Shown: positions 1,891 to 25,919, counted from the first letter of the stretch. The stretch is 64,000 bases of DNA from Dictyostelium discoideum (GCA_000004695.1 CM000152.2:6080001-6144000); one strand, 5' to 3'. The notes: a model not told the origin generated them from the sequence alone. Numbers and translations are program-made.

Positions 1891-11580
<9,690 letters not shown>

Positions 11581-16362: not shown

Positions 16363-17850
16363 ATGATTAAAAAAATTAAATTATCAAGTTTCACAAAAAT
16401 TATTAAATCCATTGGAAAGAAAAAAAGCATGGATTCAATTTATGGGAAAAATTGGGAAGGATTAAATATTTTCTCATATGAGGTATTGGTCCATATTTTC
16501 TCATTTTTAGATTGTAAGTTTTAAATTAAAATAAAATAAAATAAAAAAAAAAAAAAAAAAAAACAAAAGAGAATATTTTATTTATAAAATCTATTACTTA
16601 ATTTTTATAATTAGTGACCGATATTAAGAATTTAAAATTAGTATCAAAAGATTTTTCAAATATAGCATCTGAGTGTTGTTTATGGAGAATGTTTTTAATT
16701 AAATTACATACTGATGGAAAGATTTCACCAAGAGTTTGTCATTCAGCTGTTGTTTATAAAAATTTAATGTATGTTTATGGTGGACATTTACCAGATAGTC
16801 ATACTTTTATTAAAGATGTTAAAAGTGATTTAAATGCTTATGATTTTGGTATGTAAATAATTTTTAATTATTATTATTACTATTATTATTTTTTTTTTTT
16901 TTCAATTATTAATAATTTTTTTTTTTTTTTTTTTTAGAAACTAGAAAATGGAATACATTAACAACAACAGGAATAAATATGCCAGAGAAAACTGAACATT
17001 CAGCAGTGGTTTATAAGAATTCAATGTATACATTTGGAGGTTATTCAGGTACATCATCAAATTATATGGATATTTCAGTTTATAAATTAAATTTAGATAC
17101 AATGGAAGGTGAAATATTAAATGGTACTGGTCAAAAACCAATGGGTAGATCAGCTCATTCTGCAGTGATTTGGAAAGAATATATGTATATTTTTGGTGGT
17201 TGGGATGGTACAGAATCAAATAATACTTTCTATCGTTTAAATTTAGATACATTGGTGTGGTCATTAGTTCCAGCAAAAGGTACACCACCACCTTGTATTA
17301 GGTCCCACTCTGCAGTTGCTCATAACGATTTCTTATATATTATTGGTGGTTATGGTCCAAACGGTCATACTGAACGTCCATATAGTTATGATTTGGCTAA
17401 TAATCAATGGGTGCCAATGTTAATGAATAATAATAATAATATTAATAATAGTAAAGGTGGTAGTAATAATAAAGGAAAGAATAGCCATGATGATGGTCGT
17501 GGACCATGTTCACGTTCACGTCTACGTACAGTTGTTTATGGTAATAGTTTATGGTGCTTAGGTGGTTGGAATAGATCATGCTATTATAATGATCTTTGGA
17601 AATTTAATTTGGATACTCGCCAATGGAGTAAAATTAATTCATCATTTGAATTAAAAGGTATTGGTCAATATTCAGTTGTTGCATATAGAAACCAACTCTA
17701 CTTCTATGGTGGATATAATCCAACCACTAGTTCACCACAACCAAACGTTTATACTTATATTGTTGAAAAAGATCTCGAAAGAGATTCAATCAAAAACAAA
17801 AAGAATACTTTAGAACCAATGGAAATTTTTATTGATAAAAATAATAATAA

Positions 17851-17904
<54 letters not shown>

Positions 17905-18133
17905 TAATAATAATAATAATAAATTCATTTCTTCAATTAATATTTCTTCAACCGATGATAATAATGATAAAAATAATAATAACAATAATAATAATAATAG
18001 TGATAACGAATCACAATCAATCGATAATAATACCAATAATAACAATAATAATAATAATGATGATGATGACGACAAACAAAATTCTAATATTTACAATCAA
18101 AACCTTTCAAATGTTGGAATACCAACAAATTGA
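16363..18133 (+). CDS. F-box/Kelch-repeat protein with a C-terminal poly-Asn/Asp tail
   Basis: Exon 1 is 16363..16513 (MIKKIKLSSF...WEGLNIFSYEVLVHIFSFLD, an F-box; donor GTAAGT, phase 1). Exon 2 is 16615..16848 (acceptor ATTAG, donor GTATGT, phase 1). Exon 3 is 16938..18133 (acceptor TTTTTAG). There are six Kelch-like blades with the recurring motifs HSAVVYKN.MY.FGG and W..V/L. Confidence 0.7.
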
Positions 18134-18589
18134 AAATAATAATAATTTATAAAATATATTAAAAAAAAAAAAATAATCTTTGTACATATATATAAAAAAT
18201 AAAATAAAATTAATGTAATAGAAATAATTGATTTTTATTTTTTTTTTTATTTTTTTTTTTTTTTTTTATTTAAAGTTATAATTGTTTATAATATTATATT
18301 TAAATGATTGATTTTCAAGTTCAATAATAATTTTAAATTTTTTTTCTATTGATCTATAAAATTTTATTAAAAATAAAAATTTTTATTTATATTTTTATTT
18401 TTTAATATAAATCCCAATTAGTTGATTTTTTTTTTTTTTTTTTTTACTTTTATTTTTTTTTTCTTTTTTTTTTTATTTTTAATTTATAAATTTAATTTTT
18501 TTTTATTTTTTTTTTTTCTCCTAATGTTATTATTGTAAATCAATTCAAATAAATTAAAAAAAAAAAAAAATCAAAAACCAAATTAAATG

Positions 18590-18940
18590 GAAAAAAAAAA
18601 TGGAATATGAAAAATTTATGAATGAAAATAAAGAAATTGGTAGATTTAACTGTAGAGAAAGAAAATTTAAACATAGAAAATGAAAATTTAAAACAAATAT
18701 TAGTAGATTCAAATGTAGAGAAAGAAAATCTTAAAACAAAAATTAGTAGATTCAACTGTAGAGAGAAAATTTAAACATAGAAAATGAAAATTTAAAACAA
18801 AAATTAGTAGATTCAACTGTAGAGAAAGAAAATTTAAACATAGAAAAGGAAAATTTAAAACAAATATTAGTAGATTCAACTTTAAAAATTGAAAATTTAA
18901 AACAAACAGTAGATTCAGCTTTAAATAAAAATGTAAGTAA
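18590..18940 (+). repeat. Tandem minisatellite, about 62-bp unit in 5-6 copies
   Basis: The repeated unit is tagtagattcaa(c/a)tgtagagaaagaaaatttaaacatagaaaatgaaaatttaaaacaaa(t/a)at. Units differ by 1-nt indels, so no single frame is maintained. The array ends with ...aaaaatGTAAGTaaaatcatttag, a donor-like site. Confidence 0.8.
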
Positions 18941-18949
18941 AATCATTTA

Positions 18950-20010
18950 GTAATAATTTTTAAAAATATATTTGCATAATAAAATTAATATGTTAATCTA
19001 TTTAATTTAGGAATCTTCGGTTTTTTAATTAATACCGAAGAAATTAATTTTACCAAATATGATATTATTGAAAAAAATACTATATTACTAAAAACTATGA
19101 AATAAATGAAGGAATTCAATTACTCTCAGATCTGTTGTTTTTCCTTGAAAATGAAATAACAGAGATTCCATCATCATTTTAAAAAATTTTAAAAAAATAT
19201 ACATCTGGTGATGTTGAATTTTTCTATGGTCCAACTTCATCTGTTTTTATTGCCAATGACAAGTTAGTATTTAAATGGTTTAATAATTCATCCGATTATA
19301 AACATGAAGTATACTATTTAAGCCTATTAAATGGTATTGAAGGTACTCCATCAATTATGCGTGAAAATGAAAAGAAAATTGGATTGAATCAATCACCAAG
19401 AGGGCGTTTGGTTTGGGATTTAAAAGATAAAGTTCTTCCAATATCATTCTACACAAAGGTATGTAAATCCAATTCAATAATTATATAATACCCTATTTTT
19501 AGAGATATATATGTATATATACTAACCCTTATTTTAAAATTAAAGTCTGTAGAAATTCTTCAAAACATTCACGAAAGATTTATTATTCATAGAGATATTA
19601 GATTATCTAATCTTTTGAAAATGGATAATGGTTCACCACTTTTGGTTGATTTTGGTTTTGCAACTAATACTAGAAACGATGTAGAGTATTGCGGAACTTT
19701 GACTACAGCTTCGAACAGAATTTATGAAAAATTATTAGATAATGGTTTTTATGATACATTTTCAGTAACAGAAGCTGATGATTTGGAATCATTGGTAAAA
19801 GTGTTTGTAATGGAGAATGAAGATTGTGTCAAAGGAATTATCAACTCAATTAAAAGTAAAAAGGTAAGGCTCTTAAAGACAAATTGGGATTGGTTAAAAA
19901 AAAAATACAATAACTATTCAAAACTTTTTCAACTTGCATCAAATAAAAACTATGAAGAGTTAAAAAAGGAATTTTTAATTGTTGACCAAATCAAAAAATC
20001 AAATAAATGA
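18950..20010 (+). pseudogene. Degenerate or truncated paralog of the atypical kinase gene at 23185..25520
   Basis: The 3' part is intact and spliced: ...FFYGPTSSVFIANDKLVFKWFNN...LPISFYTK, then GTATGT...TTAAAG, then SVEILQNIHERFIIHRDIRLSNLLKMDNGSPLLVDFGFATN...KKSNK with a stop at 20008..20010. The region homologous to the middle of the paralog (19000..19200) carries in-frame stops and frameshifts (...EITEIPSSF then TAA), and there is no intact N-terminal exon. Confidence 0.55.
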
Positions 20011-20351
20011 TAAAAAGAACAAAATTGATTGCAACCCCTAGTCTTTATTATGCTTTCAAAAAATTTACAAAAAGTTTCCAATAAATCAGAGAATAAATTT
20101 TTTTTTTTTTTTAATAGGATTTAATATTTAAAGAAATCAATTATTTGAAAAAGATAAATGGGTGGAAAGAATAAAAAATTATTAATAATTATTATTACCT
20201 TTTTTTTTTTATTATTTATTTTTTTAACTAAAAATCTATATTTTATAAAATATAAAATATATTCCCTGTCCTTAAAAATAAAAAAAAAAAACATTACACC
20301 AAAATAACGTTTCAAAAAAAAAATAAATACTTTTTATTTTAAATTTAAAAT

Positions 20352-20389
<38 letters not shown>

Positions 20390-20684
20390 AAAGTTAGATT
20401 GTATTTTTTTAAAAAATAAATACCAAAATTTTTATTTTTGAAATATAAATATTATAAAATGAAAAAAAGAAAATAATATAATGATTATTTGTTTTATTGC
20501 TTTGTATAAAAATAACATTCAAACCCAAGGTTATTTTTGACACTTTTTCTAAAAGAACAATAGAATCTTTTTTTTTAAATTCTGTGCAAGGTGTTCGTGG
20601 GAAATTTTTTTTTAAGATTTTTTTTTTATTTTCATAAATTGTTTGGTTTTCGTATTTTTTAACCAGGGTCAAGTTTCAAGATTA

Positions 20685-20726
<42 letters not shown>

Positions 20727-20945
20727 TATTGTAAAAACACAATATAATTATATATACATATTTTTTTTTTTTTTATTATTATATAAATAATTAAAATGTC
20801 AAATTCTATTTTTAGACACTAAATAAAAAAAATAAAAAAAAATAATAATAATATAATTTAATTACATATATTGTATTAGTAAAATTCACATATATTTTTT
20901 CAAAAAAATAAATAAATAAAAAAATAATAAAATAATAATAAAAAA

Positions 20946-22478
20946 ATGAATAACACTAATATTGAAAATAACAATAATATTGGAAATAATAATAATGAGG
21001 AGAGAGAAATAATTGGTTCAGCAATAATAACAAATAGTATAGATAATAGTGATAAAAATAATGAAAATGAGTTAATTAAATTAGGTAAACAAATCGATGA
21101 TATTGAAGATGCAAAATCATTATTAAAAAAAAATAAAGAACAACTTGAATCATTACAAAATAATAAAATTGATTTAAATAAATCATCAAATGCAGTACCA
21201 AACAATGTATTAAAAACATCAACAAATTCAATTCCAGAAAATAAAGGTTTAAAATCATCAACAACAAATTTAAATAAGAGTACTGGTTTAAAACTAAGTC
21301 AATTATTTGTTAATCCATTATTATATAGTGTTGCCTCTGAAGATCATATGGTACTTCAGGTTTCACCATCTGAAATGCCACCATCGCCACGTGATATTGA
21401 AGCTGCAAATAATGAAGAGGATGATGATAGCGATAATATTCCAATGAATAAGGTTGACTCCAATTTAACCACTACTCCTGGTGGTGAAAATAATAATAAT
21501 GATGATGAAGAAATTACAGATGATGGTAATGTTAAAGTTGTTCAAAGAAATAAATATTTACAAAAATGGGATGAGATTTGGTCGAAATTTCAAGGTATTA
21601 TTTTATTGGTACTTAGTACTGGTCTTTTTTCAGTTATGGCATTAGCAGTTAAACAACTTTCAAAAGAATTATCATCATTAGAGATTGCTTTCTTTAGGTC
21701 ATTTTATTGTTTTATAGGTTGTCTTTTAATTTTATTTCCATTGAAAATTAATCCATTAGGTCCAAAAGAAAAGCGTTTATTCTTATCATTACGTGGTCTT
21801 TCAGGTACTATTGGTTTATGTGCTTATTTCTATTCCATCACAGTTTTACCATTATCAGAAGCTGTAATCATTTCATTCACTAGTCCAGTTATGACCGCTG
21901 CATTAGCTGCGGTACTATTAAAAGAGAAATGGGGACCAGTTCAAGCAATATGTGCATTCTTATCATTATGTGGTATTACAGTTATTTCAAAACCATCATT
22001 CCTTTTCCACGATGATCATAATGATGGTTCAACTGCAAGTCATGCTGAAGGTGATCCACATAAATTATTATATATTTTTACAGGTATTATAGGTGCATTC
22101 TTTGGTGCAATCTCTTATATCGCAGTGAGAAAGGTGGGTCCAAATGTGCATGCATTTGTATTGGTAACTTATTTCTCTGGTTTAGCTTCACTAGTTACTT
22201 TTCCATCAGCTTTCATATTCCAAACTTTCAAATGGCCATCATTAAAAGCTTGGGGTTGGATTACATTAATGGGTGTTTTTGGTACAGTTGCTCAAGGTGC
22301 AGTCAATAGAGGTATTCAATTGGAAAAAGCTGCAAAAGCCGCTGCAATGAATTATCTTCAAATTATTTTTACATTTATTTGGGAAATTACATTCCTCCAT
22401 GAAACAATTGATTGGATAACATTATTAGCTGCTGGTTTAATTTTATCATGTGCTATTGTGACTGCCATAAGAAAATAA
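20946..22478 (+). CDS. EamA-domain transporter (drug/metabolite transporter superfamily, SLC35G-like), single exon
   Basis: A 510-aa ORF. The N-terminal Asn-rich region is followed by ten hydrophobic helices containing two EamA-like repeats (FFRSFYCFIGCLLILFPL...; ...VTYFSGLASLVTFPSAFIF...TLLAAGLILSCAIV). Confidence 0.7.
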   Translation: MNNTNIENNNNIGNNNNEEREIIGSAIITNSIDNSDKNNENELIKLGKQIDDIEDAKSLLKKNKEQLESLQNNKIDLNKSSNAVPNNVLKTSTNSIPENKGLKSSTTNLNKSTGLKLSQLFVNPLLYSVASEDHMVLQVSPSEMPPSPRDIEAANNEEDDDSDNIPMNKVDSNLTTTPGGENNNNDDEEITDDGNVKVVQRNKYLQKWDEIWSKFQGIILLVLSTGLFSVMALAVKQLSKELSSLEIAFFRSFYCFIGCLLILFPLKINPLGPKEKRLFLSLRGLSGTIGLCAYFYSITVLPLSEAVIISFTSPVMTAALAAVLLKEKWGPVQAICAFLSLCGITVISKPSFLFHDDHNDGSTASHAEGDPHKLLYIFTGIIGAFFGAISYIAVRKVGPNVHAFVLVTYFSGLASLVTFPSAFIFQTFKWPSLKAWGWITLMGVFGTVAQGAVNRGIQLEKAAKAAAMNYLQIIFTFIWEITFLHETIDWITLLAAGLILSCAIVTAIRK

Positions 22479-22786
22479 ATTAATAATTAATAATTAATAA
22501 TAATAAATAATAATAATAAATAATAATAGAATAATAATAATAGTAATAATAATAATAATAGTAATAATAATAATAGTAATAATAATAATATAATAATAAT
22601 AACAAAACTAATAAATAATAATATAATATATTTAAAGTTAACTTAAATATATCTCTATTTTAATAATAATATATATTATATATAAAATTTATATGTAATA
22701 ATATAAAAAATATTTAATTAAATAAATCATAATAGTACTTTTGTAATATTTTTACATATTTACTAAATTTAATAATAAAATTAGTT

Positions 22787-22823
<37 letters not shown>

Positions 22824-23184
22824 AAAATTGAGAATTTAGAGAAATAGTAATATTTGAAGTTATTTTTTATTTTTTTATTCTATTGTTTTTGCTCTAGGAA
22901 TTTGAAAGTTTTAGATAGAATTTGACTAATTAAATCAATTTTTAAATAATGTATTATACATTTCTTTTTTCATATAGAGTATTCCACCTTTGGTTTCATT
23001 TAAAGTCTTTTTAACATTAATTCCACCACCAGTTTTTGTGCCTACTTTGAAGCAATATAAACTTGGAATAGTTCTTTTTGGTTGTGGTAATGTAATTAAA
23101 TCTGCTTCTTGCCAAGAATCTAAATAAAACATTTTATAGTGATTACCCGTTATTAATGGGACAGTGACATTATTGGTTATTGGT

Positions 23185-25520
23185 TCATAGCCCATGAATT
23201 GTGGTATCTAACAATGGCACCATATTATTTACACTTAAAGCCGTAATAGTATTAGATGTAGTTGTATTTGTATTAGTGGTTGAAGTTGTATTTGTATTTG
23301 TATCAGATGTAGTTGTATTTGTATTTGTGTTAGTAGTTGAAGTTTCAATGGTATTAGTGTATGAAGTTGTAGTTGTATTTGCAATGGTATTTTTGTGTAT
23401 ATTTGTATGATTTTGGTTATTATTTGAAGTTGTGGTTGTATTTTTTATTTTATCAATTTTAATAAATTCATTTTTCAATTCTTCATAGTTTTTATCTTGG
23501 GCTTGCTGGAAAAGTGTGGAGTATTGGGGGTAGAATTCTGTTTTTAAAATTTCCCACATTGTGCGAAACAATCCAAATTCCGAATTTGGTATTGATAAGA
23601 TATTTCTTTTAACAGTTTGCTCATTCTCCATAATATAAACCTTTACCAATGACTCTAAATCATCAGATTCATCTACTGAAAATGCATGATTGGTTTCATT
23701 CTTTATTAAAATATTATAGATCCTATTTGAAGCAGTATTCATTGTTCCTTGGTAGAATTCTTCATTTTCAGTGAAATTTGCAAAACCAAAATCTACCAAA
23801 AGAGGATCGCCACCAGAATCCATTAAAAGATTTGATAATCTAATATCTCTATGTATAACCTCTCTTTGATGTATGTTTTTGAGTATTTCGACAGACTATT
23901 TTAATATAATATATATTTATATATTATATTGAAAAAAAGATTATAAATAAGTGTTTAAAAAGAAAATATAATTATAAATTATTGACTGTAAATTAAATTT
24001 ACATACCTTAGTATAAAAGGAAATATCAATGAGTTTGCCTTCTAAGTTCTTAATCAATTGGCCTCTTGGTGATATTTGAATCCAGTTTTCAGTTTGGTTT
24101 TGTTGTTTTATTGTTGGAGTACCTTCAATACCATCAATAAAGGTTAAATATTTAACTTCTGTTTTAAAAAAATTAGGATGATTAAACCATTTATATACAA
24201 ACTCCTTATTTACAATGAAAACCGAAGATGTTGAGCCATAATAAAATTCGACAGAATCATTTGTATTGTTTTTCAATATAGTTTGTAAGCTATTTGGAAT
24301 GTTTCTAATAAATTGTTCGAGGTAAAACATTATATTTGAAAGGTATTGAAACCCTATTCTTAAATCATAGTCGATTGTAATATAATATTTATTGTTTTCA
24401 ATATCATACTTTACAAATTTAATTTTTGTTTTATTCATTAAGAAACCAAACATTGGACGTTTTAAAACATGATGATTTGACTTTTCAACGATTATATCAA
24501 TATATTTAAGAACTTGACCCAGGTTTGTATCACTTGTTATTGAACCTTTCTTTATATCACCAACCATGTGCATCCAATAGGGTTCAAATGGAAATCCTTT
24601 TTGATTAATAAAGTAATCACAATACCTATTGCTTATTATACTATTAATCTTTATTTTCGTTCCATTGGTAATAATTAATTTCCTTTTTTTATTAAAATCT
24701 TTAAAATATTCATCCAATTTCGATTGCATGGTAGATTCTTGATTGCAATCATCTAAATTGATGACATGTTTCTTTAATTCTATACCACTTGGTATGTTCC
24801 AATCTTTGAATTCACAGTTTTCTTTTATCAACTTTAGGGATTTCTTGATTTTAAACAATTCAGAATATGAAGTTGTTCCTTTTGAATCACCCTAGATTTT
24901 TATAAATTTTATTATTAATAATTTTTAATTAGAATTAATTTTAATTTAACAACAGTCTCGAATTGAATTTGTCTTACATTTTTAGTTGAAGAAGTTAAAA
25001 TGATTGATTTTTTAAGATCCTCCACATTTGTCTTTAATTTTTGTTTCTCTTCTTCAACTTTTGTTAAAAATTCTTTTTTTTCTTCTTCCACTTCTTCAAC
25101 TTTTGTCTTTAATTTTTGTTTCTCTTCTTCAACTTTTATTAAAAATTCTTTTTTTTCTTCTTCCACTTTTATTAAAAATTCTTTTTTTTCTTCTTCCACT
25201 TCTGTCTTTAATTTTTGTTTCTCTTCTTCCAATTTTATTAAAAATTCTTTTTTTTCTTCCTCCACTTCTGTCTTTAATTTTTGTTTCTCTTCTTCAAATT
25301 TTATTAAAAATTCTTTTTTTTCTTCTTCCGACATTCTATTTTTTTCTTCTTCAATTTTTAACCTTTTTCTTTTATTTTCCACTTTTTTGAAAAATTTTAT
25401 TTTTTGTTTTGGATCATTAATATTATCAATTTCATAATCTTCTAATATTTCATAAATATCATCTTCTTTTAAATCCTTTAAACTTTCTTTATTTTCTTTC
25501 AAAAATCCTGAAATGTCCAT
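23185..25520 (-). CDS. Lineage-specific atypical protein kinase-like protein with an N-terminal coiled-coil repeat exon (about 712 aa, three exons)
   Basis: Exon 1 is 25520..24978 (MDISGF..., with the EEEKKEFLIK(V/L)EEEKQKLKTEV heptad-like repeats; donor GTAAGA, phase 0). Exon 2 is 24891..24007 (GDSKGTTSYSELFKIKKSLKL...VEFYYGSTSSVFIVNKEFVYKWF...ISFYTK; donor GTATGT). Exon 3 is 23895..23185 (SVEILKNIHQREVIHRDIRLSNLLMDSGGDPLLVDFGFANF..., then a Thr/Asn-rich tail and the stop). The HRD-x-R-x-x-N catalytic loop and the DFG motif indicate a kinase fold, but the glycine loop and the APE motif are atypical. Confidence 0.6.
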
Positions 25521-25919
25521 TTTTTATTAAAAGGTTTTTTTTGATATTTAAATTTATTGGTAGTTTTTTATTTTTTTTAAAACTTTATGTTTGTTATTAA
25601 AAAAAAAAAAAAATTATAATAATTATAATAATTTTTTTTAAAAATTAAGGTTAGTAATTAAAAAAAAAAAATAAAATAAATAAAATAAAATAATAATAAA
25701 AGTTTAAGGATCTTTTGAACTTATTTGGGTTTTATATATAAAAAAAAAAAAAAAATTTGTGGTGCGCCAAATATAGAAAACAAAAAAATGTAAAACAAGT
25801 AATTACATTTTAAAAAAAAAATAATAATAATAATAAAATTTGCAATTTCCAAATAAAGTATTTTCAGAAATTTATAAATAATAATAATTTAATAATAATT
25901 TTTTTATTTTTTATTATTT

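Follow-up and report, generated by a model that had tools for sequence, protein, structure and literature searches.

Two described systems come closest to the genes reported here. The FunK1 kinases, described as fungus-specific, are defined by a Ser that replaces the Lys at position 8 of subdomain VIb (HRDIS), and they form lineage-specific expansions with non-syntenic copies whose function is unknown (PMC3203195). The C-termini of the Crinkler proteins pair a restriction endonuclease (REase) with a kinase, and the kinase has been proposed to regulate the nuclease effector (Zhang et al. 2016, as reported in PMC5289972). Here, we describe a locus of the amoebozoan Dictyostelium discoideum that lies in a stretch of 64,000 nucleotides (GCA_000004695.1 CM000152.2:6080001-6144000), which we call the window and whose positions are counted from its first letter. 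In this locus, a minus-strand kinase gene (A-type, or A) and a plus-strand copy (B-type, or B) face each other across the gene of an EamA-family transporter. We propose, as the probable explanation, that A and B are ancient multidomain-kinase paralogues of the D. discoideum complex that converge on EamA, with A intact, B a pseudogene and the locus as a whole unstable.

Results

The two genes and their relatives

The two loci are homologous. Where the B copy is still readable (246 residues), it shares 137 of 244 residues with the A protein (56%; BLASTP E 8e-89), and the identity of the DNA is ~67%. Both genes converge tail to tail on the EamA open reading frame (ORF), with 3.2 kb separating their 3' ends; a preliminary description of this DNA had likewise placed inverted copies about 3 kb apart around EamA. 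At high identity, the homologue search found close relatives only in the D. discoideum complex, where they fall into two groups, A-type and B-type. Closest to the A protein are DDB_G0282777 (91%) and, in the sister species D. cf. discoideum, ACTFIZ_006295 (69%; the A-type P0004 also 69%), while the B-type group includes ACTFIR_000885, ACTFIW_005616/17 and P0006/P0007 of D. cf. discoideum as the closest relatives of the plus-strand copy. The B remnant is 75-79% identical to its B-type relatives in tblastn alignments that span the intron, and up to 93% identical in exon 3; for the B-type protein P0013, the values over the surviving parts are ~79-93%. The repeats that encode the heads of these proteins are unrelated to each other, with 11-residue units in A and units of 21, 14 or 7 residues in different B genes.

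The order of the genes is also shared between genomes. In ACTFIR (L001) it reads up384 (a 384-codon ORF), B (554 aa, intact), EamA, A (split) and SPT16, and in ACTFIW (L006) it reads SPT16, A (857 aa), EamA, B (550 aa) and B (649 aa). Since the window, ACTFIR and ACTFIW agree in this order, three D. discoideum lineages share the convergent A / EamA / B layout. The sister species (L003) has SPT16, A (605 aa) and EamA, with its B-type genes elsewhere, so that the placement of A between SPT16 and EamA is common to the D. discoideum lineages and to D. cf. discoideum. A and B thus appear to be two anciently diverged paralogues that represent old subfamilies.

The preliminary description had offered two accounts of the pair. 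The inverted duplication followed by decay of one arm stands in that the genes are paralogues, one intact and one degenerate; it fails as a recent event, given the 56% protein identity and the shared synteny. Because the arms are so diverged, have closer relatives elsewhere and share their synteny between genomes, any inverted duplication must predate the divergence of these genomes, and the decay would be a separate, lineage-specific event. The other account, a rapidly evolving, repeat-headed and lineage-restricted kinase family, is borne out by head repeats that differ by paralogue and strain and by a nonsynonymous divergence (dN) about 10 times that of the flanking genes.

Other traces of the family were seen in the sister species. 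In L003 (ACTFIZ), a weak and fragmented remnant at 17226-17713 (28-33% identity, on the opposite of the expected strand) is found where D. discoideum has its B gene, with EamA on one side and the up384 orthologue on the other. In L004 (D. cf. discoideum ACTFIY, 9184-9416), an off-locus B-type gene has in front of it a piece of EamA (38 codons from the N-terminus) and the final 19 codons of up384, in what looks like the junction of another segmental duplication.

The plus-strand copy

The 3' half of the B copy is correctly spliced, as had been described: exon 2 ends after ISFYTK at 19458, intron 2 follows at the codon position that it also has in the minus gene, and exon 3 reads SVEILQNIHERFIIHRDIRLSNLL...DFGFA, including HRDIRLSNLL, up to its stop codon. 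The stops and frameshifts reported for the middle of the copy are also present, both in the alignment to the intact ACTFIR orthologue and in the three-frame translation. At the 5' end, a ~62-bp minisatellite terminating in GTAAGT had been thought to replace the original sequence. There is a tandem repeat (of 63 bp) and a GTAAGT donor; the idea of a foreign minisatellite has to be dropped, as the repeat is the gene's own coiled-coil-coding repeat and intact relatives carry such repeats too. Moreover, GTAAGT is the gene's own donor, because intron 1 is conserved in the comparison with the intact orthologue. The B-type head contains MEYEKFMNENKE.

Several lesions separate this copy from an intact gene (Table 1). 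After MEYEKFMNENKEI, the unique ~40 codons have been overwritten by repeat units that switch frame (lesion 1). The largest lesion, absent from the preliminary account, is a deletion of 436 bp (lesion 2), by which exon 2 has lost ~145 codons, among them those of the CDY...G(D/E)VK nuclease-like motifs. It is followed by a 1-bp deletion, an in-frame stop and a frameshift pair (lesions 3 to 5), by a 5-bp deletion near the 3' end that shifts the stop codon (lesion 6), and by a 26-bp indel in intron 2 (lesion 7). We considered whether the 436-bp deletion arose by out-of-register recombination between tandem B copies such as those of ACTFIW. Since the single-copy B gene of ACTFIR aligns with a clean internal deletion, the simpler reading of an internal deletion was kept. 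In blastn, two alignments lie on either side of the junction (19012-19016), and they fall on different copies of the ACTFIW tandem.

The surviving codons evolve unlike those of the neighbouring genes. Against the intact ACTFIR orthologue, 237 B codons give an omega (dN/dS) of 0.90 at a synonymous divergence (dS) of 0.067, and the flanking genes have an omega of 0.03-0.27 at the same dS (0.065-0.072); here and below, omega, dN and dS are Nei-Gojobori estimates. Annotations have called fragments of the copy as proteins, namely P0166 (203 aa) and a 306-aa Pkinase product in ACTFIT, the second D. discoideum assembly used here. Judged by these features, the plus-strand copy is a genuine pseudogene, disabled by several independent lesions.

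The minus-strand gene

The A gene had been described as a coiled-coil repeat exon joined to a kinase-like domain, and we find it as an uninterrupted ORF of 712 codons in three exons, with HRDIRLSN and DFGFA. In the window genome, this copy appears to be intact. Its full-length layout comprises a repeat coiled-coil head, an N-terminal nuclease-like domain, the kinase and a Thr/Asn-rich tail, to which some members of the family add a small C-terminal domain. The A-type head contains MDISGFLKENKE, and the exon-1 repeat encodes EEEKKEFLIKV / EEEKQKLKTEV. This head is helical and of coiled-coil type, and both the repeat unit and its copy number vary between paralogues and strains in the alignments with L001 and L002. 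In P0165, the repeat array of the head is much longer.

Beyond the stop codon of the 712-aa model lies an 86-codon ORF in the +1 frame. A Pfam scan of this ORF gave no match. In hhalign, it matches the in-frame C-terminal domain of the B-type proteins P0006-P0009 with a probability of 92% (E 5.6e-7); D. cf. discoideum keeps it too, at 65%, again in the +1 frame and without any GT nearby. A 25-nt GT..AG element, which the ACTFIT annotation treats as an intron, would bring the ORF into frame; the element also exists in ACTFIW, and at the corresponding site the B-type gene P0006 has an intron of 52 nt. A length of 25 nt would be too short for a normal spliceosomal intron. A normal-sized intron was sought and rejected, the 25-nt element being the sole in-frame GT..AG option and a 112-nt candidate being one that would remove conserved residues of the domain. 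Of the two B genes of ACTFIW, only the distal one (649 aa) carries the extra C-terminal domain; the proximal one (550 aa) lacks it.

The kinase domain

The kinase domain of the A protein was examined in full-protein numbering, with its conservation taken from an alignment of 40 sequences. Its key residues are G400, K415, E426, H491-R-D493, R495, N498, D511-FG, G526-T..TAS and D554-DLESL. Among the 40 relatives, G400, K415 (beta3), D493 (HRD) and N498 are invariant, and E426 (alphaC), H491, R492, R495, D511 (DFG/DWG), G526 and D555-L556 of DDLESL are conserved in at least 90%. Pkinase (PF00069) is the sole Pfam domain above threshold in the window protein, with 35.9 bits for A and 35.1 bits for the B remnant against a cut-off of 31.7; only ~55 residues are aligned, confined to the catalytic loop and DFG. 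The model has a bilobal kinase fold, and whole-model fold searches list only kinases. The absence of a canonical glycine loop and of an APE motif, remarked on before, is real: the loop reads YYGSTSSVF, with one Gly, and TAS stands in place of APE. Distant relatives retain a GxGxxS loop. The A protein is thus predicted to be a eukaryotic protein kinase by Pfam threshold, catalytic residues and fold, and not by its Gly loop or APE.

The preliminary description had also hinted at a pseudokinase. This hint is not sustained, as the beta3 Lys, the alphaC Glu, the HRD Asp, the catalytic Asn and the DFG Asp are all invariant or conserved in at least 90% of the relatives. Similarly, the Arg of HRDIR, kept at that same level, is a feature of the whole family and not a lesion. 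A search of 1.84 billion representatives with a profile of the globular part returned 315 proteins at E<=1e-10, whose traceable members come from Dictyostelium, Acytostelium and uncultured eukaryotes.

The N-terminal domain

Between head and kinase, the A protein carries a globular domain with the signature E233, C-D273, G-D293-I-K295 and G-Q307-VLK-Y311. The corresponding pattern, (P/C)D ... hhhhG(D/E)xK ... GQxxxY, is kept in 22 N-domains of just 11-25% identity; none of them departs from D273 or K295, and for G306, Q307 and Y311 the conservation is at least 90%. In an AlphaFold2 (AF2) model built on a 40-sequence alignment (predicted local distance difference test, pLDDT, 92), the domain consists of H52-67, E72-76, E93-97, E107-113, H121-138 and E147-152, where H stands for helix and E for strand. 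In this model, E233 lies at the start of helix 1 and D273 at the start of strand 2, D293-I-K295 ends strand 3, and the long helix that follows carries Q307/Y311 and leads into a further strand. The PD-(D/E)xK restriction-endonuclease-like core has this order of helix-strand-strand-strand-helix-strand, with its motifs at these places, and members of its RecB/Cas4-like branch typically carry QxxxY.

Database matches of the family point in related directions. DUF6826 (Pfam PF20713) is matched by 18 of the 22 aligned N-domains and by 21 of 40 full-length relatives (E-value limits of the two scans, 10 and 0.001), the best E-values being 5e-13 to 1e-16. Weak Pfam nuclease matches, each in a single member, were found to PDDEXK_9 (0.023) and RE_endonuc (0.086). 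We consider the N-domain a putative PD-(D/E)xK restriction-endonuclease-like fold, and probably so, on the strength of its motifs and of their positions in the model.

Turnover of the locus

ACTFIR (L001 14620-16600) is the mirror image of the window, with A broken and B intact. In its A gene, the start codon and the repeat are no longer in one frame because of a deletion in exon 1, a 5-bp insertion makes a TAG just before intron 2 and the donor GT has become GC; the gene is annotated as two pieces of 335 aa and 185 aa. ACTFIW (L006 15799-21054) has two intact B-type genes in tandem beside EamA.

A further copy is DDB_G0282777 (UniProt Q54SC4, 'Probable serine/threonine-protein kinase'), which lies ~190 kb away on the same chromosome, has the same exon structure and encodes a protein with 91% identity to the globular part of the A-type protein. 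Its locus is a ~5.4-kb segmental duplicate (L002 8978-13854, on the ACTFIT chromosome CM142509.1) of window 26511-21086 at 90-96% identity, and in the duplicate both EamA (aa 49-438, frameshifted) and SPT16 (aa 720-864) survive only in part. The kinase gene in it lacks 1 bp just ahead of HRD, a loss that the UniProt and GenBank models mask by an alternative acceptor and that is the reason for the odd UniProt sequence ...KVFCRNTQKHTSREVIHRD. A TTA-to-TAA change adds an early stop, and head repeats are far fewer. Its deletion, its TAA and its broken neighbours mark DDB_G0282777 as the damaged duplicate of a parent, the window gene, which holds the ancestral position. Our literature search found no paper that mentions DDB_G0282777 or DUF6826.

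The rates of A were estimated in two comparisons. Against the broken ACTFIR copy, omega is 0.78, and the flanking genes have 0.03-0.27 at the same dS (~0.07); like the 0.90 of the B remnant, this value indicates relaxed constraint. Against the sister-species copy, omega is 0.37, with a dS of 0.48 (flanks 0.14-0.17) and a dN of 0.18 (flanks 0.01-0.03). The A protein thus appears to be constrained, yet to evolve about ten times faster than its neighbours. The dS of A (window 23449-24891) against L003 is three times that of the flanks, and the cause could be gene conversion from other paralogues, a lack of orthology between the copies or a mutation rate that is raised locally. The locus as a whole is unstable: A is intact and B broken in the window, the reverse holds in ACTFIR, ACTFIW has A and two B genes, and A has been duplicated as DDB_G0282777.

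Assembly and neighbouring genes

The window comes from chromosome 3 of an AX4-like D. discoideum genome. Its G+C content is ~22%, its introns are short and AT-rich, and it has long runs of a single base. Over 12880-35542, the identity to the ACTFIT chromosome CM142509.1 (GCA_054883475.1) is 99.56%, and within 18300-25700 the sole differences are the lengths of four intergenic homopolymers. These T or A runs (18426-18517, 20354-20385, 20687-20723 and the 25599 region) differ by 1-7 bases. Since the ACTFIT sequence is otherwise identical, an independent assembly confirms the gene structures and the lesions of the window locus. Upstream of the pseudogene, up384 (16979-18133, plus strand) has an Asn/Asp-rich low-complexity C-terminus; the ORF is kept in all compared genomes at an omega of 0.11-0.24, and its annotated orthologues have no recorded domain. 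The features of the locus are collected in Table 1.

Table 1. Features of the A / EamA / B locus in window coordinates
Feature	Position	Strand	Basis or remark
A-type gene, 712-aa model	exons 25520-24978, 24891-24007, 23895-23185	-	rebuilt translation, GT..AG introns, HRDIRLSN and DFGFA
A-type gene, 787-aa model (22935..25520)	exon 3 23895-23233 and exon 4 23207-22935	-	equals ACTFIT_012008 and P0164 exactly
Coding tandem repeat, A exon 1	25036..25329	-	Tandem Repeats Finder (TRF): 33-bp (11-residue) base unit, periods 33/66/99 bp
N-terminal globular domain, residues ~225-385	24280..24762	-	PD-(D/E)xK-like signature
Predicted protein kinase domain, residues ~395-628	23440..24252	-	interrupted by intron 2 (24006-23896)
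Low-complexity Thr/Asn-rich tail, 6/57-bp repeats	23233..23439	-	TRF and translation
25-nt GT..AG element, intron per ACTFIT annotation	23208..23232	-	if unspliced, stop at 23185 (712 aa)
86-codon ORF, +1 frame, overlaps stop of 712-aa ORF (CATGGGCTATGA)	22935..23195	-	matches B-type C-terminal domain, GILYM motif
B-type pseudogene	18600..20010	+	alignment to intact L001 orthologue, tblastn mapping; identical in ACTFIT
B start codon and MEYEKFMNENKEI	18600	+	exon-1 remnant to 18932
B-head coding-type repeat, 63-bp = 21-codon unit, also 104 bp	18634..18906	+	TRF (18716-18901, 89% matches)
B intron 1; exon-2 remnant	18933-19010; 19011-19458	+	GTAAGT donor at 18933
B intron 2; exon 3	19459-19545; 19546-20010	+	GT..AG; stop at 20008-20010
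Lesion 2, 436-bp deletion junction	19011..19016	+	directly after intron-1 acceptor; not a multiple of 3
Lesion 3, 1-bp deletion, frameshift	19071..19077	+	GAAAACAAATAC to GAAAAAAATAC
Lesion 4, in-frame TAA	19180..19182	+	SSL-K in intact gene, here SSF*
Lesion 5, -1/+1 frameshift pair	19360..19401	+	invariant ENWIEISPRG becomes KKIGLNQSPRG (WI.ISPRG strand lost)
EamA-family transporter gene DDB_G0282673, 510 aa	20946..22478	+	exact match to AX4 XP_640194.1 / Q54S45

Discussion

We favour the view that an old pair of multidomain-kinase paralogues converges on EamA, with A alive, B dead and the locus prone to turnover, and we hold it with reasonable confidence. Several observations weigh against one or another part of it. 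The intactness of A and any function are things that we infer from its sequence, and the protein collection, searched for an exact copy of the 712-aa product, gave none, though it does contain the neighbouring AX4 EamA protein. Moreover, because the +1-frame C-terminal domain can be reached only through a 25-nt 'intron', the A gene may itself be partly degenerate. The lesions of the ACTFIR A gene, which make that locus the mirror image of the window, are known from one assembly. As for the nuclease-like domain, the window N-domain scores 18.1 bits against DUF6826 (E 0.0031), below the cut-off of 26.6, and the acidic residue of (D/E)xK is a Gly in P0010, an intact relative. In addition, an N-domain sequence profile found nothing significant among the sequences of the Protein Data Bank (PDB), and fold searches with the whole model returned only kinases.

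The pair could be explained in other ways. If one kinase gene had recently been duplicated in inverted orientation around EamA and one arm had then decayed, this would account for the inverted copies, for both intron positions being common and for the one gene between them. We give this scenario hardly any chance, as the arms are 56% identical in protein and ~67% in DNA with no extended inverted DNA repeat around them, and each has much closer relatives in other genomes and the same position in two more D. discoideum lineages. The sister species has only the A arm here, its B-type genes being elsewhere, and an 11-residue head repeat in A is unrelated to a 21-residue one in B. There is also a slim chance that the plus-strand remnant is a shortened gene, not a pseudogene, whose truncated, C-lobe-only protein is still functional. 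An ORF does run from a Met (MRENEKK...) via intron 2 to the stop and has been called as P0166, a 306-aa Pkinase product is annotated there in ACTFIT, and exon 3 retains 93% protein identity to the intact orthologue. However, such a product would have neither the nuclease-like domain nor the Gly loop and beta3 Lys, and it would lack the nucleotide-binding half of the kinase. The invariant WI.ISPRG strand is lost to the -1/+1 frameshift, the copy carries five or more independent lesions, and omega is 0.90 at the dS of the neighbouring genes, all of which speaks for a pseudogene beside an intact paralogue.

Alternatives also exist for what the protein would do. The N-domain could be a structural extension of the kinase, as is assumed for FunK1, without nuclease-like chemistry and with a motif that is structural or coincidental. 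This is possible, if doubtful: there is no significant sequence-level match to any solved nuclease, the Pfam nuclease matches are weak and confined to single members, and the acidic residue of ExK is lost in P0010. Nevertheless, the D and K are invariant and G-Q...Y is kept at 90% or more, though the sequences are only 11-25% identical, the motif positions on the predicted strands and helix fit the canonical PD-(D/E)xK core, and REase plus kinase is a documented pairing (PMC5289972). It is quite unlikely, in our judgement, that the family consists of pseudokinases or scaffolds without phosphotransfer. The Arg in HRDIR, the one-Gly loop YYGSTSSVF, the change of APE to TAS and a Pkinase alignment of merely ~55 residues around the catalytic loop would fit this idea; the catalytic residues conserved across the 40 relatives argue for an active kinase.

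If the favoured explanation is right, the repeat head would oligomerise the protein, and an active kinase of Ser/Thr type would work together with the nuclease-like domain, in a mode that parallels the REase-plus-kinase modules of the Crinkler toxins and the FunK1 kinases. The role may be a dispensable and fast-turning-over one, as in conflict or self/non-self systems. Such behaviour, as opposed to that of core signalling, is suggested because the genes are dispensable, segmentally duplicated and fast evolving, with lineage-specific nulls. It is tempting to go further and to speculate that A and B are endogenous conflict genes, namely oligomerising nuclease-plus-kinase effectors homologous to the Crinkler modules and FunK1, with a polymorphism kept by selection. 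They might, for example, defend the cell against parasites or mobile elements, or act in antagonism between strains. We consider this extended proposal unlikely. If it were true, the locus would provide a genetically tractable model for a kinase superfamily of unknown function in fungi.

As it stands, the locus records ordinary gene-family turnover in a little-studied family, in which one member of an old pair has died and lineage-specific duplication and decay go on. Two practical consequences follow for the databases: the intact parent gene beside DDB_G0282673 has no 712-aa product in the protein collection, and what is catalogued as DDB_G0282777 is the damaged product of a segmental duplication, with a frameshift that its published protein model conceals. 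Through this family, Dictyostelium, where knockouts and strain mixing are easy, is linked to the FunK1 / DUF6826-kinase superfamily, which is uncharacterised, and, by the logic of a nuclease joined to a kinase, to the Crinklers. Were the nuclease-like domain and the kinase both active and the polymorphism selected, this superfamily could be opened to experiment.

Comparison with known systems

Compared with the kinases of the CK1 group (CK1, TTBK, VRK), the window kinase shares just 11-20% identity. It differs from them by its catalytic-loop Arg and its extra N-terminal domain, and its best solved matches by sequence profile are to CK2alpha' rather than CK1. The Crinklers (CRN/CR, such as Phytophthora CRN8) resemble it in joining a REase-fold domain to a eukaryote-type kinase, a likeness that is architectural only and drawn from the description in PMC5289972. 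In contrast, the head of the window family is a coiled-coil repeat and its proteins look intracellular and endogenous; scans of the window protein and of 75 relatives revealed neither a Crinkler/Ubl header nor a secretion signal. The window proteins are not Crinklers, since they have no header domain.

The likeness to FunK1 (PF17667) goes further. In both, the kinase is preceded by a conserved N-terminal region, DDLES follows the activation segment, and copies are non-syntenic and belong to lineage-specific expansions. PF17667 is matched in 16 of 40 and in 15 of 35 relatives, and in P0021 profile positions 20-117 overlap the DUF6826 match; distant family members carry DUF6826 in front of Pkinase or Pkinase_fungal (FunK1). 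Among the window proteins, A has no match to PF17667 at E<=1 and the B remnant reaches 13.4 bits against a cut-off of 24.1. Unlike FunK1, the window family has an Arg (HRDIRLSN) instead of the Ser, its host is an amoebozoan, with relatives also in Acytostelium and uncultured eukaryotes, and it has features of its own in its coiled-coil repeat head and its small C-terminal domain. Because they fall below the PF17667 threshold, have Arg instead of the defining Ser and come from a non-fungal host, the window proteins are not FunK1 in the strict sense, but they appear to belong to the wider DUF6826-plus-kinase assemblage. The window gene is thus a better-defined member of a known but uncharacterised kind of kinase.

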